From Escherichia phage P762, in the sequence record MW876471: a stretch of 38,954 nt of DNA; one strand, 5' to 3'. The notes beneath the pieces were generated by a model that saw only the letters and a list, made by a program, of their open reading frames with translations, ran no database searches and was not told where the DNA came from. Below are positions 2,980 through 38,954 of the stretch, piece after piece (the first letter of the stretch is position 1; every line of letters starts with the position of its first letter). Both the position numbers and the translations under genes were made by a program.

Positions 2980-3018
2980 AAAGTCTCCTCTTAAAGTATT
3001 ATAACTTAAAGGGCCTAT

Positions 3019-3041
3019 AGTCCCTATAGTGATAGTTAAGG
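3019..3041 (-). promoter_or_regulatory. phage RNAP promoter (phi13 position)
   Basis: minus-strand CTTAACTATCACTATAGGGA (plus strand tccctatagtgatagttaag), one of 11 copies of the same motif. Confidence 0.75.
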
Positions 3042-3065
3042 TAAATCTATAGGCCCTTCAATAAG

Positions 3066-5423
3066 TTAGACGGAACGAGCTTTCTTAGCGTATGACGCCT
3101 CCCAGCCACACCCAACGATGGACACTGGGGTAGGATAATCTGACTCTAAGGTTAGGCTCGTGGTTAATGCGTTACCATTCATAGCAAAGCGATACTGTCC
3201 ATCCCCAATGTTGGTAGTCCCGATGGTTTGCTGACCAAGTGTGTACCCGTTAAAGGTGTTCACGAACTCCCGCTCACCGTTTCTGACAATGAGCCTCAGA
3301 GCGCCAGTGTCTTTGTAGTTTACCCAAGCCCGACGAAGCTGTAGACGACCAGTGTCTTCAGACTTAGTTCCACTATCATCTTCAATCTTAATCAGGAACC
3401 GTGAGAACTTGTAGGACATCAGATAGGAACGTCCGATGAACACTGTGCGTCCTGACCAATCGCCGTTTAGGGTAACCACGGTAGAGATACTGGTCAAGTC
3501 CCCAAGGTCCACATAAGCACCCTGACTGTCAATCAGATAGTACCGACCGGGAGACGGAGCGTTGCCACCATAAGCAGCAGCAATGTCAACCGTAGTCTTA
3601 TAGGTGTCAGCATTATATGAGCCAATTGGAATTACCATAGACACCTTGGAGTCAATGTGTAGTCTATACGGCTCTGACGGGAAGTCAGTTGCCTCCTTGA
3701 TGAACTTAAGGTGCTCAATGTCTACCCCTCCTTGGTGCTGACGAATGATGAACATGGTAGAGCCAATAGAAGCAGACGCCAGAATCTTATCGTCTTTAGG
3801 GAACTCCCAGTGTGACCAAGAGGCTTGAAGCTGTACGCCGTCCTTAAACAAGAATTTGTAGATGTAGATTCGGTTGTATGCACCTGTAGAGTTGACGCAG
3901 ATGTAGTTCTCAGTCCCTGTACCTTGAATATCAAACACCCCGTTAGGGATGTAGGACAATACGTGACCAGTTGTATCATCGGCATCCTTCACATCAGACA
4001 CATCAGCTACAGCGAAGTATCGCTTAATGCTGGTGAATGACCCACGGGGGGCTGAGAAGAAGACTGAGCGTCCTACAGCGAACGGTCTGGCATTGTCACC
4101 TAAGGCAAACTCTGAGCCTACATCAAGCTGGATAGACTTCGAGGTAAGGACCCCAGAGCTTGTCATCACGAACTGAACCTCATCCGACCAAAGTAGTAGC
4201 TGCTCGCTAAACGGAACGGCATACTTAAGGATTGAGATACGAGGGTTACTTACAGCTACATCAATAGGGTCATCATCGCTCAGTGTCGCCACACTCTTAG
4301 GGAAGAACGCAAAGTAGCTGGCTGAACGGCTCATTATTACGTTCTCACCCGACAAGAACCCAAGTCTGTTCCTGTAGAAGAACACATCATTAATCGCAGC
4401 ATCCACGAAGCTAGGCATAGGGTTTGTGTCATCGTTACCAGCACCACGCTTGGACCAATCCAGAGTCTTAAACTCAAAGGAGCCATCAGGCTGTCTGACC
4501 AGAGCATGTGGCATTGTGGTGACATCAAAACCAGTGACAACTCCCGGCTCCACTGTCTCCTTCCACGTCTTAGTGTTGGAGTCATACATCACGTAGTATT
4601 CATCGGCGCTACTGTTTGTCTCACCTTGAATCTTAATGATATACCCATTAGGAGCGGCAAGAGGCAGTTTAGAGATTGTCTGCACAGTGTCTAGGACTGG
4701 GCTTATTAGCTGGTTAGCGTAGCCATCCTCCGTCTCCACTGAGTTAATATCGGTCCCTGAAGGAGCTGTGATTAGCAGGAAGCCAGACCCAAGGTCGAAC
4801 GTGAAGTCAGGATAGGCCTGAACAAGAAGGTCTCTCAGAGCTGCACCAATGGCTTGAGCGTCCACCTTAGGTGGGTCATTCTCGGCATCATTACCTGCTG
4901 GTAGCTTATGCGAGACCTTAACTCCACCGTTGATTCCCACCTTAAGGGTTCGACCATACTGTCCACCACGCAGGTTAATTAAAGCTCGTGCTTTGCGGTT
5001 ATAACCAGAGTGTGACTTCTCGCTTCCACCTTTGACGACAACCTTACGGTTAACGACGAACGTATAGTCTGCTACGGTAACGACACGGATGTCATCTCGT
5101 GGGTTGGAGGACTTAACGTAATCTACCGCACCTGACACTGAGTATTGATTGCCACTCAAGTCAACTACCTGAATGTTGGACCCATTGAACACGATGTAAT
5201 ACTGCTCATGCTCGTCACGGTTAATCAGGTGGAACTTAGGGTTGCTCCCAACGTCGATGTTAAGACGTCGCTTGAAGACTGTAGGTGGGCGCTTCTGGAG
5301 GCCATCACTCTCGGATGACCAGCAGTTAACCTGTGCCTCGCCTTGGTCTGAGAACCTCAGTATATCAGGCTGCTGGCTAATGCCACCTTTAAGGTTCTTG
5401 ATTGATTGAGTAATTAGTGGCAT
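3066..5423 (-). CDS. gp12: tail tubular protein B (gp12)
   Basis: 785-aa ORF, size and position as T7 gp12 (794 aa), downstream of gp11. Confidence 0.9.
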   Translation of the reverse strand: MPLITQSIKNLKGGISQQPDILRFSDQGEAQVNCWSSESDGLQKRPPTVFKRRLNIDVGSNPKFHLINRDEHEQYYIVFNGSNIQVVDLSGNQYSVSGAVDYVKSSNPRDDIRVVTVADYTFVVNRKVVVKGGSEKSHSGYNRKARALINLRGGQYGRTLKVGINGGVKVSHKLPAGNDAENDPPKVDAQAIGAALRDLLVQAYPDFTFDLGSGFLLITAPSGTDINSVETEDGYANQLISPVLDTVQTISKLPLAAPNGYIIKIQGETNSSADEYYVMYDSNTKTWKETVEPGVVTGFDVTTMPHALVRQPDGSFEFKTLDWSKRGAGNDDTNPMPSFVDAAINDVFFYRNRLGFLSGENVIMSRSASYFAFFPKSVATLSDDDPIDVAVSNPRISILKYAVPFSEQLLLWSDEVQFVMTSSGVLTSKSIQLDVGSEFALGDNARPFAVGRSVFFSAPRGSFTSIKRYFAVADVSDVKDADDTTGHVLSYIPNGVFDIQGTGTENYICVNSTGAYNRIYIYKFLFKDGVQLQASWSHWEFPKDDKILASASIGSTMFIIRQHQGGVDIEHLKFIKEATDFPSEPYRLHIDSKVSMVIPIGSYNADTYKTTVDIAAAYGGNAPSPGRYYLIDSQGAYVDLGDLTSISTVVTLNGDWSGRTVFIGRSYLMSYKFSRFLIKIEDDSGTKSEDTGRLQLRRAWVNYKDTGALRLIVRNGEREFVNTFNGYTLGQQTIGTTNIGDGQYRFAMNGNALTTSLTLESDYPTPVSIVGCGWEASYAKKARSV

Positions 5424-5432
5424 AGGCCCTCC

Positions 5433-5660
5433 TTAAATCATACTCATTAGGACGTATCCTTCAGCGATGTCATCAACGTCAGCAATGTGGACAACCTTAC
5501 GTGCTACCTGTTGTCCAGTATACCCGTTGTCCCACTCATTCAGGATAAGCCAATCGCCAACCTTAAAGTCCCGGTCGTTGAGTCTTAGCTCTGCTGTCTT
5601 TAGACCTAGTTGTACCGGACCAAAGTGCTGGCGGTGAATCTTCAGGTTGTGACTAGCCAT
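5433..5660 (-). CDS. DUF3850/ASCH (PUA-like) small protein, inserted between genes 11 and 12
   Basis: 75-aa ORF with GGAGG SD; start overlaps gp11 stop (TAATG); pattern H.LKI...F..V..G.KT.E.R.NDRDF.VGD.L.L.E.D...YTG...EGYV.MS matches the DUF3850 signature as recalled. Confidence 0.75.
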   Translation of the reverse strand: MASHNLKIHRQHFGPVQLGLKTAELRLNDRDFKVGDWLILNEWDNGYTGQQVARKVVHIADVDDIAEGYVLMSMI

Positions 5661-6226
5661 TAGTCCCTCCCGATGTCGGACATCATGTTGTAGCGACCCG
5701 TGTCCATCTCGTACTCCATAACCTGCTGATAGAGTTCTGCTTCCTGCTCACGAAGGTATAGCTCTGACTCTGGGCTACCGAAGAACTTAGCATTGAACTC
5801 ACGGCTAGCTTTAGTGACGATGTAGTCCCTGAAGACAACAGGCATCTCAGCGAATGGTTTCATCTCCACAAGCTCTACCGTGATAGGGTCGGTGAAAGTG
5901 GTTGACTGAGTGGATAGGTCGTACAGGTATCCACCCATGTTGCTGTAGTAGCTGGTGGCCCCCGCGGTCATTACACGAAGGTATGACGGCAGGAATCGAA
6001 TCCTATTGTCTTGGACATCAGGTGTCAGGACGGCAGCTTCGTTGATATTAAAGTTCCAGCCTTTAGCTTGGACCTGACGATTGACACGATGCAGTATACG
6101 TTGAGCGTTAGAGACGTCAGCGTTCCCCTCGTCAAGCTGTAGGACTGCTGGTTCACCGATAGCAGCTAACATATCGTTGATGGCATCTAAGTCATCGTTA
6201 GCATTCAGTGGAATGTATTGAGCCAT
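5660..6226 (-). CDS. gp11: tail tubular protein A (gp11)
   Basis: 188-aa ORF; AINDMLAAIGEP, IVTKASREFN and MEYEMDTGRYNM blocks match T7 gp11. Confidence 0.9.
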   Translation of the reverse strand: MAQYIPLNANDDLDAINDMLAAIGEPAVLQLDEGNADVSNAQRILHRVNRQVQAKGWNFNINEAAVLTPDVQDNRIRFLPSYLRVMTAGATSYYSNMGGYLYDLSTQSTTFTDPITVELVEMKPFAEMPVVFRDYIVTKASREFNAKFFGSPESELYLREQEAELYQQVMEYEMDTGRYNMMSDIGRD

Positions 6227-6246: not shown

Positions 6247-6290
6247 CAAAAAAAACCCCTCAAGCACCCGAAGGCACCCAAGGGGTTTCA
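6247..6290 (-). terminator. T-phi-like rho-independent terminator after the capsid gene
   Basis: minus-strand AACCCCTTGGGTGCCTTCGGGTGCTTGAGGGGTTTTTTTT: GC hairpin with TTCG loop and U-run, same place and near-same sequence as T7 T-phi. Confidence 0.85.
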
Positions 6291-7568: not shown

Positions 7569-7591
7569 TCTCCCTATAGTGATAGTTTAGT
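7569..7591 (-). promoter_or_regulatory. phage RNAP promoter (phi10 position)
   Basis: plus-strand ctccctatagtgatagtttag; upstream of capsid gene with ~100-nt leader ending in AGGAGA SD. Confidence 0.8.
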
Positions 7592-7592
7592 C

Positions 7593-8477
7593 CTACAGGC
7601 TTGAGGCAGCTACCTTAGCGCGAACTTCCATCGTGTATTTAGCGTCACGCAGGTATCGCGGGTCACTCATAGCCTTAATCATGTCAGCCTTTGAGCTGAA
7701 TGCTTCGGTCTGAGGAGCCTTAGGTGCAACCACAGGTTTAGCCTGATTGGTGAGGGTACGCTGAGGTTTAACGCCTACAGCTTTACCCAGAGTCTTGCCA
7801 GCCAGATTCAGCAGAGCTTTGGTCGTAGCAATGTCCTTACGAACGATAGCAGCTTCCAGTGCCTCACGAGTTGACGGGTCGTTGGACTCAAGGTGTGACA
7901 GGATGCGATTAAACTGTTCAGCACCACCAGCGTAGCGAACCACACCAGCAGCATACTGTTCAGCCAGAGCTTCCTGACCACGGACAAACGAATCTACGAA
8001 ACGCTTGGTGTAACCTGCTTCCTGCAACTTAGCGTAGGATGCGTCAGACAGCTTACCGTCCTTGGCGTATTCAGCCTTGATAGCGGTAATTTCATCAGCA
8101 GTGACCTTGCCAGCTTCTACAGCAGAAGACACCATGTCGTCAAATGCAGCTTCGTTTTCATCCAGAGCGGTGACACTTTCGGTCAGCTCTTTCGGTGCAT
8201 CACCAAGTTCTACGAACTCAGGTTGCTCACCATCGGTCTCAGACTCTTCGTCATCGGACTCGTGGTCTTCCTCACCTTCAGCCTCTTCGACGTTCTCGTC
8301 TTCTTCGGTCACCTCTTCGTTTTCGGCTTCCAGTTGCTTGAAGGTAATAGCGTCATCGCCATCACGAACAGCTACGTCCTGTTCAAGCATAGACTTCTGG
8401 TGTTCGTTCAGGTCCTCAACGGAACCAGTGATTGCATTAGAGCTAACGCCGAACTCGGCATAAACTGATTGAGACAT
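7593..8477 (-). CDS. gp9: capsid assembly (scaffolding) protein gp9
   Basis: acidic protein; C-terminal MIKAMSDPRY and N-terminal VYAEFGV blocks match T7 gp9; start placed at internal ATG (MSQSVYAEF, AAGGAG SD) rather than the track start at 8543. Confidence 0.85.
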   Translation of the reverse strand: MSQSVYAEFGVSSNAITGSVEDLNEHQKSMLEQDVAVRDGDDAITFKQLEAENEEVTEEDENVEEAEGEEDHESDDEESETDGEQPEFVELGDAPKELTESVTALDENEAAFDDMVSSAVEAGKVTADEITAIKAEYAKDGKLSDASYAKLQEAGYTKRFVDSFVRGQEALAEQYAAGVVRYAGGAEQFNRILSHLESNDPSTREALEAAIVRKDIATTKALLNLAGKTLGKAVGVKPQRTLTNQAKPVVAPKAPQTEAFSSKADMIKAMSDPRYLRDAKYTMEVRAKVAASSL

Positions 8478-8565
8478 TGAGTCATTCTCCTTTAAGTCGT
8501 TAATAGGTAACGGGACAGAGTATGGTGGCTCCAAGTGGCACACTCTCGGTGAATGTGTGTCCCGT

Positions 8566-8588
8566 TGTTCCTATAGTGATAGTTTAGG
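8566..8588 (-). promoter_or_regulatory. phage RNAP promoter (phi9 position)
   Basis: plus-strand ttcctatagtgatagtttag between portal stop and scaffold gene. Confidence 0.75.
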
Positions 8589-11325: not shown

Positions 11326-11386
11326 CTTGAATCTCCTCTTTAAGTTAAGACTAAAGTCTATCTTATAGTCATATCTTAGGTCCTAA

Positions 11387-11409
11387 AGTCCCTATAGTGA
11401 TAGTTTAGT
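11387..11409 (-). promoter_or_regulatory. phage RNAP promoter (phi6.5 position)
   Basis: plus-strand gtccctatagtgatagtttag. Confidence 0.8.
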
Positions 11410-17454: not shown

Positions 17455-17477
17455 CATCCCTAAGGTGATAGTTTAGG
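17455..17477 (-). promoter_or_regulatory. variant phage-promoter-like sequence
   Basis: plus-strand atccctaaggtgatagtttag: consensus with two changes in the TATA element (ctaaggtg vs ctatagtg); flanked by a GGGAC...GTCCC inverted repeat. Confidence 0.4.
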
Positions 17478-19819: not shown

Positions 19820-19842
19820 CTGTCCTACAGTGATAGTTTAGG
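19820..19842 (-). promoter_or_regulatory. phage RNAP promoter (phi2.5 position)
   Basis: plus-strand tgtcctacagtgatagtttag (one change, ctacag for ctatag). Confidence 0.65.
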
Positions 19843-20691: not shown

Positions 20692-20714
20692 TTGTCCTAT
20701 AGTGATAGCTTAGG
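20692..20714 (-). promoter_or_regulatory. phage RNAP promoter (phi1.5/1.6 position)
   Basis: plus-strand ttgtcctatagtgatagcttag. Confidence 0.75.
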
Positions 20715-22300: not shown

Positions 22301-22345
22301 TTAATCATGAAGGCCACGACTTTGAGTCATGACCTTGAGTCTAAT
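22301..22345 (-). promoter_or_regulatory. conserved hairpin, candidate RNase III site (R1.1 position)
   Basis: RNA UUAGACUCAAGGUCAUGA-loop-GUGGCCUUCAUGAUUAA; same stem as the 15305 and 31831 sites. Confidence 0.5.
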
Positions 22346-22364
22346 CCTATAGTGATAGTTTAGG
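22342..22364 (-). promoter_or_regulatory. phage RNAP promoter (phi1.1 position)
   Basis: plus-strand aatcctatagtgatagtttag. Confidence 0.75.
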
Positions 22365-25883: not shown

Positions 25884-25906
25884 TAGTCCTATAGTGATAG
25901 TTAAGT
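25884..25906 (-). promoter_or_regulatory. phage RNAP promoter directly upstream of the RNAP gene
   Basis: plus-strand agtcctatagtgatagttaag about 75 nt upstream of the gene 1 ATG. Confidence 0.6.
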
Positions 25907-28643: not shown

Positions 28644-28666
28644 CTTCCCTATAGTGATAGTTAAGT
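28644..28666 (-). promoter_or_regulatory. phage RNAP promoter (phiOR position, after the terminase gene)
   Basis: plus-strand ttccctatagtgatagttaag. Confidence 0.75.
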
Positions 28667-34565: not shown

Positions 34566-34588
34566 GTTTCCTATAGTGATAGTTTAGT
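34566..34588 (-). promoter_or_regulatory. phage RNAP promoter (phi17 position)
   Basis: plus-strand tttcctatagtgatagtttag. Confidence 0.8.
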
Positions 34589-38475: not shown

Positions 38476-38954
38476 TTACTCCTTACCAATTAGTGCGTTT
38501 GCGATACCCTCCAGTGAGACGTCATTGTACATCCCACCGCGCTTCTCGATATTGGCCTCTCGGTCAGCTCGACGTTTATCACCAGCAGCTTTAGTCCCGA
38601 CGATACGCGCTCGCTTGTTAGCGTCACGTTCTGCCTGAGCGTATGCGGCATCTTGTGCCTTCTGCTGTTGTTCGCGGTAGAGTTTACCTACAATTTCTTT
38701 ATCGTATCGAATACGAATAGTCCCTGTAGCGTCTTGGAGGAAGATAGAGCCGTTCTGTTCAACAACGGACAACTGAGAGTTCACTACCCAAGGGTTAGCC
38801 TTAATGAGTTGCTGACGAGCTGTGTCGATAATGTCTCGACCAACCTGCCACGACTCTGGGTTATCCCCGACCATAAGCTGGTGTTTGGACACCATGCCTA
38901 TGGACTTACCGTCAGAACCTTCAGACTGGAACGTTACGGTGTTCTCATTCAGCC
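38476..38954 (-). CDS. gp15: internal virion protein gp15, 3' part (same CDS as 1..1931)
   Basis: C-terminal translation ..SWQVGRDII..ANPWVVN.QL...GSIFL.DATG.IRIRYDKE matches the T7 gp15 C-terminus; upstream part lies beyond the window end. Confidence 0.85.
   Translation of the reverse strand, partial: LNENTVTFQSEGSDGKSIGMVSKHQLMVGDNPESWQVGRDIIDTARQQLIKANPWVVNSQLSVVEQNGSIFLQDATGTIRIRYDKEIVGKLYREQQQKAQDAAYAQAERDANKRARIVGTKAAGDKRRADREANIEKRGGMYNDVSLEGIANALIGKE
38828..38954. repeat. 127-bp exact duplicate of window positions 1..127 (circular-assembly overlap)
   Basis: end sequence ataatgtctcgaccaacctgccacgactctggg...ttctcattcagcc is identical to the first 127 bases; lies inside the gp15 coding sequence. 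Confidence 0.9.

Follow-up and report, generated by a model that had tools for sequence, protein, structure and literature searches.

The open reading frame at 5433-5660 of Escherichia phage P762 is almost certainly a real DUF3850/ASCH accessory gene and not a part of the tail. It forms a precise cassette between the tail tubular protein genes 11 and 12, and this cassette is old in its lineage, dispensable and repeatedly lost, and not a recent insertion. The layout of the expression signals around it indicates that it shares a transcript with genes 11 and 12 and is coupled to them in translation. The 75-aa product may be a small hydrolase acting on a modified nucleobase, a tentative reading that is weighed below against its alternatives.

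RESULTS

A DUF3850 gene in a complete T7-type genome

The window, that is, the whole stretch of 38,954 nt analysed here (sequence record MW876471), ends in identical direct terminal repeats of 127 bp (1-127 = 38828-38954), and it therefore represents a complete, linear T7-type genome given in reverse-complement orientation. All of its genes lie on the minus strand, which is the coding strand of the whole phage. Over 25 kb the window is ~94% identical to Escherichia phage ST31 and other Kayfunavirus (K1F-like Studiervirinae) genomes. An Rfam scan of the whole window found nothing.

The first-pass annotation of this DNA had described a 75-aa protein with the DUF3850 signature between the two tail tubular genes. 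This was confirmed: the ORF, on the minus strand, starts with an ATG at 5660-5658 and ends with a TAA at 5435-5433, encodes the product MASHNLKIHRQHFGPVQLGLKTAELRLNDRDFKVGDWLILNEWDNGYTGQQVARKVVHIADVDDIAEGYVLMSMI, and has a Tube-domain gene on one side and a Phage_nozzle gene on the other (Table 1). The check that had been suggested, an HMM scan against PF12961, gave a match to DUF3850 with E = 1e-19 and 70.9 bits (gathering cut-off, 22.9 bits) over profile positions 2-76 of 77. PF04266 (ASCH) also scored above its cut-off of 21.2 bits (27.3 bits, E = 6e-6), covering only profile positions 2-62 of 103, with the C-terminal part missing. Furthermore, the protein is matched by PHROG 986 'RNA-binding protein' (4e-35) and by PDB entry 3IUW from Enterococcus faecalis (2e-10, or 1e-24 with the family profile). 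No NCBIfam profile matched the 75-aa protein, and the PADLOC defence-system models returned a single weak match that is meaningless (14.6 bits, E = 0.0065), so that nothing connects the DUF3850 gene with known defence systems. The gene, its position and its family assignment are present in public annotation, and as an object it is already known.

Two plus-strand antisense ORFs, at 5467-5637 and 5487-5588, were rejected: all transcription of this genome comes from the opposite strand, and both lie inside a coding sequence under purifying selection.

Table 1. Features of the gene 11/12 region and promoter-like repeat copies in the P762 window
Feature	Position	Strand	Basis or remark
Gene 12, tail tubular protein B (nozzle), 785 aa	3066..5423	-	PF25675 Phage_nozzle, E=0; dN/dS 0.062
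9-nt spacer GGAGGGCCT, DUF3850 stop to gene 12 ATG	5424..5432	-	Inside the 237-bp block absent from K1F
DUF3850/ASCH-fold CDS, 75 aa	5433..5660	-	ORF list and Pfam
Most of the 237-bp block (present here, absent in K1F-type)	5424..5657	-	Pairwise alignment with K1F
TAATG stop/start overlap	5658..5662	-	Gene 11 stop 5662-5660 and DUF3850 ATG 5660-5658 share one base
Shine-Dalgarno GGGAGG of DUF3850 gene	5666..5671	-	Within last gene 11 codons GGG AGG GAC TAA; 5 nt upstream of start
Gene 11, tail tubular protein A (adaptor/gatekeeper), 188 aa	5660..6226	-	PF17212 Tube, 8.6e-46; dN/dS 0.028
Tphi-like intrinsic terminator between genes 10 and 11, 17-bp stem and T-run	6252..6289	-	Terminator scan; position as T7 Tphi
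Phage RNA-polymerase promoter (phi10-like), nearest upstream of the 10-11-DUF3850-12 block	7572..7591	-	12-copy repeat family
Phage promoter (phi13-like), just downstream of gene 12	3022..3041	-	Repeat family D1
Promoter-like copies	3022-3041, 7572-7591, 8569-8588, 11361-11409, 17458-17477, 19823-19842
Promoter-like copies, continued	20695-20714, 22345-22364, 25887-25906, 28647-28666, 34569-34588

Expression of the gene together with genes 11 and 12

Two earlier proposals, that the gene sits in the most highly expressed operon of the phage and that it is a moron, did not survive inspection of the expression signals. The strong Tphi-like terminator (6289-6252) precedes gene 11, and no phage promoter lies between it and the DUF3850 gene. 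The most abundantly expressed unit ends at Tphi and the DUF3850 gene lies outside it. When the 12-copy repeat family was mapped over the window, no phage promoter copy was found between 3041 and 7572. The 300 nt upstream of the DUF3850 gene hold no sigma-70-like site (the overall count of such sites is not above that in shuffled sequence), and the terminator scan detected no terminator after the gene. With a terminator upstream and no promoter in between, the gene would thus depend on transcripts that read through the terminator and also carry genes 11 and 12. Moreover, the overlap of the gene 11 stop with the DUF3850 start in the TAATG motif implies translational coupling.

In being an extra, dispensable gene between two genes that abut in relatives, the DUF3850 gene resembles a classical phage moron. 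Classical morons, however, are autonomous promoter-gene-terminator units, whereas the DUF3850 gene has neither a promoter nor a terminator of its own and is coupled to its neighbours through the overlap with the gene 11 stop, and for these reasons it is not a classical moron. In addition, P762 is strictly lytic, without the lysogenic-conversion logic of classical morons.

The repeat family from which the promoters were mapped consists of twelve copies of a 20-nt sequence, the reverse complement of which (CCTAAACTATCACTATAGGA) resembles the core of a T7-type phage RNA-polymerase promoter; two of the copies lie 29 nt apart at 11361-11409. The scaffolding ORF at 7593-8543 (minus strand) is listed with a GTG start 22 codons upstream of an ATG (MSQSVYAEF...). 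The ATG start gives 294 aa, the length annotated for K1F gene 9, and the GTG extension, which reaches to within a few bases of the phi9-like promoter at 8569-8588, is probably untranslated.

A 237-bp cassette and two kinds of probable deletion scar

On the coding strand the left junction of the cassette reads GGGAGGGAC-TAATG and the right junction ATT-TAA-GGAGGGCCT-ATG. At the right junction the DUF3850 stop runs into a second Shine-Dalgarno, made up of spacer and stop together (TAAGGAGGGCCTATG), which stands 9 nt ahead of gene 12 and serves it. The block that distinguishes P762 from K1F extends from DUF3850 codon 2 through the gene 12 ATG, and its edges are ambiguous by 3 nt because an ATG stands at both ends. 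The match spans over the gene 11/12 flanks are 1036 nt in carriers and 799 nt in non-carriers, a difference of exactly 237 bp. The Shine-Dalgarno of the DUF3850 gene is kept in all 12 IMG/VR orthologous loci, two of which have GGGAGA.

The gene is widespread among related phages. A tblastn search with the 75-aa protein gave matches of at least 80% identity in 155 phage records. In every case the setting was 'tail tubular protein A' with a small ORF, and the labels of this ORF vary between hypothetical, DUF3850, RNA-binding protein and activating signal cointegrator. At the same position, the gene is annotated with 95-99% identity in more than 130 phage records of GenBank. Kayfunavirus-like gene 11/12 flanks occur in ~219 records, and a 48-nt probe across the K1F junction retrieved 27 records (~22 phages) without the insert; that is, in K1F and 26 further records gene 11 directly abuts gene 12. 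The gene is absent from T7, K1F, ZG49, YZ1, pO2, HAO2-2, SR04, SH4 and others.

The first-pass annotation had taken the gene to be inserted between genes 11 and 12. It is indeed extra relative to T7, where the two genes are only 23 nt apart (24818/24842), and relative to K1F, the type phage of the genus, where they overlap by one base. Within the genus, presence is the majority state, and the K1F-type genomes look, from their junctions, like secondary deletions. The K1F junction reads GGGAGGGACTAATG-CCGCTT..., and gene 12 starts there at the ATG that in P762 belongs to the DUF3850 gene, in flanking DNA that is ~95% identical between K1F and the carriers. K1F-type genomes retain the left Shine-Dalgarno of the DUF3850 start, which now serves gene 12; since the only evident reason for this embedded motif is the DUF3850 start, the K1F state is read as a secondary precise deletion. 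Citrobacter phage SH4 also lacks the gene, and its junction is GAC-TAA-T-AGGAGGTGAT-ATG, with an 11-nt gap between genes 11 and 12. Here it is the right-hand Shine-Dalgarno that is retained, and none is found in the last gene 11 codons. We read SH4 either as a second, independent loss, with a scar unlike that of K1F, or as a never-inserted state. In sequence, the motif kept in SH4 (locus L091, ~1590-1613, compared with L017, 3200-3260) is GGAGGTGAT, and the last gene 11 codons of SH4, GGT CGA GAC, are synonymous with the carriers' GGG AGG GAC.

Carriers are also found among the deep branches (Pectobacterium phage LET1 and the IMG/VR locus L017), and phage B1, a close relative of SH4, has the gene. 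Neighbour-joining trees were built, without bootstrap, from gene 11 and from the 5' portion of gene 12. In both, the K1F-type sequences group together and are nested among the carriers, and recombination is evident. Carrying the gene is the majority state within Kayfunavirus, and probably the older one.

In Hafnia phage yong1 (L093, 1478-1918) and Enterobacter phage B1 (ORF41), a further ORF of 146-158 aa is located between the DUF3850 gene and gene 12, annotated as an endonuclease in yong1 and as hypothetical in B1 (PMC12785254). The presence of such ORFs in some Kayfunavirus genomes makes the 11/12 junction look like a recurrent insertion site.

Selection and composition

The ORF is intact in 13 of 13 orthologues, and the gene is under purifying selection where it is kept. 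Its dN/dS, from pooled pairwise Nei-Gojobori estimates over 13 Kayfunavirus sequences, is 0.157 (pS 0.16); genes 11 and 12 have values of 0.028 and 0.062. Intact orthologues, Shine-Dalgarno and dN/dS together go far beyond what chance would give. Its GC content is 0.47 against 0.50 for the genome and its CAI 0.64 against 0.69-0.77 in late genes; in both GC content and codon usage the gene has converged on its genome. In the same 13 sequences gene 11 (pS 0.28) and gene 12 (0.23) show more synonymous diversity than the DUF3850 gene (0.16), which could reflect recent recombinational spread or constraint at the nucleotide level. As natural loss is frequent, any benefit of the gene must be conditional.

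Some copies depart from the conserved motif. The LET1 copy (L092, 1599-1817) is 72 aa long, has P-Y-D-E-G-Y in place of the near-invariant L-N-D-R-D-F and carries a 3-residue deletion, and is possibly inactivated or re-purposed. Single metagenomic variants are R30L in L015 (IMG/VR, 3001-3228) and D31G in L013 (589-816).

The DUF3850 family outside Kayfunavirus

DUF3850 is a large family (5,242 clusters at 50% identity, E ≤ 1e-3). The closest homologues outside Kayfunavirus are 58-65% identical and belong to a lambdoid Erwinia phage, Drexlerviridae and Guernseyvirinae/Kagunavirus. In the lambdoid Erwinia phage the gene lies in the nin region, just after the replicative helicase; in Hafnia phage TS33 it lies between DNA polymerase I and a helicase; and in P2 it is orf91, immediately downstream of replication gene A. 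Together, the DUF3850 genes of other phages (P2 orf91, Guernseyvirinae/Kagunavirus, Drexlerviridae and the lambdoid nin region; PHROG 986) have 41-65% identity and all the invariant residues in common with that of P762. They differ from it in belonging to early or replication modules and in often having C-terminal extensions or N-terminal fusions, whereas P762 has the bare domain in a block of tail genes.

A neighbour census (Pfam/PHROG, two genes on each side) was taken over 41 non-redundant IMG/VR viral loci and 47 bacterial loci (of 49 tabulated). The neighbours at the viral loci were helicases, primases, gene A, NinB, NinG, Mu Gam, DNA methyltransferases and sigma-like late regulators, and the bacterial loci showed a prophage or ICE setting with Cro/CI-type HTH proteins, gene A, Rep, Toprim and PcfJ. 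At none of the 41 viral and 47 bacterial loci was a tail gene found beside the DUF3850 homologue, nor was there a specific recurrent partner such as a tRNA or RNA enzyme. The lack of tail neighbours in other phages makes the Kayfunavirus position an oddity; the domain as such has no connection with tails. The sole exception to the prophage/ICE picture was met in Caulobacter (L106, L110 and L124, 3001-3480), where a 159-aa DUF3850-containing protein adjoins yidC, in a non-phage and apparently conserved chromosomal context.

No significant second Pfam domain was found in ten multidomain DUF3850 representatives of 185-409 aa, among which the ParB-CTPase fusions reported previously (PMC12704722) did not figure. 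In the literature naming DUF3850 we found no functional test, and nothing joins Kayfunavirus with an RNA-binding protein, or activating signal cointegrator with bacteriophage tail tubular proteins.

Fold and conserved residues

The AlphaFold model of the 75-aa protein has a pLDDT of 79 and the PUA-like beta-barrel of the ASCH superfamily. Foldseek aligned it to 3IUW with a TM of 0.82, so the model has the fold of the only solved DUF3850 member. The structure comparison gave values of 9.1 for PH0355 (ASCH), 8.1 for YqfB 9KYF (ASCH), 7.6 for PF0469 (ASCH), 7.0 for ZmASCH, about 7 for EVE and YTH domains, and 5-6 for beta-barrel domains of tail hub proteins. The protein 3IUW itself, an 'activating signal cointegrator' from E. 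faecalis V583 (NP_814290.1), is a structural-genomics DUF3850 protein of bacterial, probably prophage, origin, and it supplies a fold but not a mechanism.

Among 151 DUF3850 representatives with at most 50% mutual identity, fifteen positions are 88-99% conserved, and all of them are present in P762: H4, L6, K7, K21, E24, R26, N28, D29, R30, G35, D36, L40, E42, T48 and G49. Eleven of these are polar, with conservation of 88% or more (93% or more in ten of the eleven), namely H4, K7, K21, E24, R26, N28, D29, R30, D36, E42 and T48. P762 thus carries the complete DUF3850 signature (H-x-L-K; K-x-x-E-x-R-x-N-D-R; G-D; L-x-E; T-G). It also has the ASCH octapeptide G-x-K-x-x-[ET]-x-R, as G19-L-K21-T-A-E24-L-R26, the K21 and E24 of which are conserved in 99% and 97% of the 151 representatives. 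Residues 21-30, the most conserved segment, are the least confident part of the model (mean pLDDT 56). Conserved aromatic residues occur at 12/13, 47 and 69, and would be no more than candidates for the role of Tyr14 and Tyr81, the residues of TthASCH that position the nucleoside. The pI is 6.0 in P762, with a family median of 6.0 and 80% of members below 7, and such an acidic domain is a poor fit to a generic polyanion binder. The first-pass annotation had suggested a regulatory or host-interaction role; the set of conserved polar residues, together with the acidic pI, speaks for a putative nucleobase pocket or an enzyme rather than for a generic RNA binder.

By hmmsearch and hhalign the octapeptide aligns with G19?-R-K21-T-I-T24-I-R26 of E. 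coli YqfB (1TE7/9KYF), an N4-acetylcytidine (ac4C) amidohydrolase of the GKTR type. The similarity in sequence is marginal (hhalign probability 86%, profile E of about 1); K21 and R26 coincide with Lys21 and Arg26, and Glu24 stands opposite Thr24. The C-terminal helical segment of YqfB that carries Glu74 is absent here, as the P762 protein ends at residue 75 and nothing aligns with YqfB 60-103. Lacking the equivalents of both Thr24 and Glu74, the P762 protein is not a YqfB-type amidohydrolase. With the GKER-type ASCH proteins (TthASCH 2DP9, EOLA1 and the TRIP4 ASCH domain), which are reported to deacetylate ac4C in tRNA, it has in common the PUA-like beta-barrel and the motif G-x-K-x-x-E-x-R with its Lys-Glu dyad. 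These proteins, however, are 110-160 aa long with extra helices, and DUF3850 has additional invariants of its own (N-D-R, H4, K7, D36 and E42).

Apparently without earlier description, though incremental, are the exact layout of the cassette, its two kinds of deletion scar, the loss inferred for K1F and the agreement with the GKER dyad.

DISCUSSION

Origin and candidate mechanism

An ancestor of the Kayfunavirus lineage most likely captured the gene from a replication or early module of an enterobacterial siphophage. There it would have become established between genes 11 and 12 as a cassette without a promoter, coupled in translation and carried on class III mRNA that reads through Tphi, and several lineages, including K1F, would later have lost it by precise deletion. 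This account of origin and expression is largely shown.

As for function, PUA-superfamily domains examine one nucleotide in a pocket (PMC11037411), and YqfB hydrolyses ac4C (PMC6972931, PMC9599836), with Thr24 activating the nucleophilic water and Glu74 serving as general acid in enzymes of its type. A 2026 preprint reports that 19 ASCH proteins, some of the GKTR and some of the GKER type and none of them a DUF3850 or phage protein, deacetylate ac4C in tRNA, the dyad of Lys and Glu/Thr being essential (bioRxiv 10.64898/2026.02.27.708502). The literature disagrees on this point, as an earlier structural study, in the words of a paper citing it, had found GKER proteins inactive on ac4C. In the mechanism that we favour, the minimal 75-aa beta-barrel would, like other PUA/ASCH domains, take a single nucleobase into a pocket walled by G19-K21-E24-R26, N28-D29-R30, H4, K7, D36 and E42, the base being either flipped out of RNA or taken from a free nucleoside or nucleotide. 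The protein would act as a small hydrolase on an N-modified cytosine-type base, e.g. ac4C in host tRNA or nucleosides, and the invariant acidic/basic cluster (N-D-R, D36 and E42) could replace the missing Glu74. The Lys-Glu dyad, catalytically essential in GKER-type ASCH enzymes, is retained, which favours a hydrolase over a passive RNA binder. Counted against a hydrolase are the lack of the C-terminal helical part with Glu74, the replacement of Thr24 by Glu, the low-confidence model at residues 21-30, and the neighbour census, in which no tRNA or RNA-enzyme partner appeared among the 41 viral and 47 bacterial loci. We also know of no benefit to a T7-like phage from erasing ac4C. We regard this mechanism as possible but, on balance, doubtful. 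The whole explanation, in which the hydrolase is joined to a late-expressed, non-structural, dispensable accessory gene, stands at somewhat less than an even chance, as a compromise between near-certainty about the gene and doubt about its activity.

Alternative readings

That the product is a structural or assembly factor of the tail, acting with gp11 and gp12, is hardly credible. The first-pass annotation had considered a structural role unlikely, and the comparative evidence bears it out: K1F-type phages with ~95% identical gene 11/12 flanks do without the gene, and homologues elsewhere belong to replication and early modules, none beside tail genes. A component of a T7-type tail is expected wherever the homologous tail is built, and this is not what was found. 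The natural deletions in K1F-type genomes show that the gene is dispensable and not structural, needed neither to build the tail nor to propagate, and they effectively refute a tail factor. Repeated loss, together with the shortened LET1 copy in which N-D-R is destroyed and the R30L change in one metagenomic copy, might instead indicate a decaying passenger, that is, a hitch-hiking remnant without current function, or a spurious ORF. This is very improbable given a dN/dS of 0.157 over 13 sequences at a synonymous divergence of 0.16, the presence of all family-invariant residues in P762, a strong Shine-Dalgarno, and retention of the gene in roughly four-fifths of ~220 Kayfunavirus-like records.

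The main rival of a hydrolase is a non-catalytic reader, the barrel of which would bind a modified base (m6A, m4C or other) in RNA or in single-stranded or duplex DNA and serve as a late regulator or shield. We consider it rather unlikely: the domain is acidic across the family, the idea of ASCH domains as m6A readers is without experimental support, the near-invariant Lys-Glu-Arg and Asn-Asp-Arg resemble an active site more than an aromatic cage, and methyltransferase neighbours occur at only 2 of the 41 viral loci. Either a hydrolase or a reader could also be a packaged effector, made late, loaded into the particle and ejected with the DNA to act at the start of the next infection, e.g. in counter-defence. 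The homologues in early modules suit a function that is required early, and from this late-region gene a T7-type phage could provide it only through packaging. Counter-defence genes typically combine presence/absence polymorphism with purifying selection, as this gene does. Nevertheless, packaging is quite improbable, as PADLOC gave no meaningful similarity (single match, E = 0.0065) and the proteins known to be ejected by T7 come from other genes (6.7, 7.3 and 13-16). In the one virion proteome found for a Kayfunavirus, that of phage B1, where the gene is ORF40, mass spectrometry of gel bands detected six major proteins only; it missed even gp11 and gp12 and is therefore uninformative about an 8.5-kDa protein.

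Implications

DUF3850 is large and almost entirely phage- or mobile-element-borne, with one solved structure, and the recent ASCH work supplies a concrete and cheap biochemical test for it, namely ac4C deacetylation. Near-isogenic pairs, one member carrying the gene and the other lacking it, occur naturally in Kayfunavirus; they include the well-studied K1F (without) and have an easily engineered T7-like background. Carried to its full extent, the hydrolase reading would give a lytic T7-family phage the smallest known ASCH-type enzyme, made late and possibly packaged, which would strip N4-acetyl or related N-acyl/alkyl groups from host tRNA (ac4C34 of elongator tRNA-Met in enterobacteria) or from nucleotides; in this full form it is improbable. 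A positive result for ac4C deacetylation would show what a domain so common in phages, and so far of unknown function, does and, if the full reading were true, DUF3850 proteins would be widespread phage-encoded erasers of RNA modification or counter-defence hydrolases.
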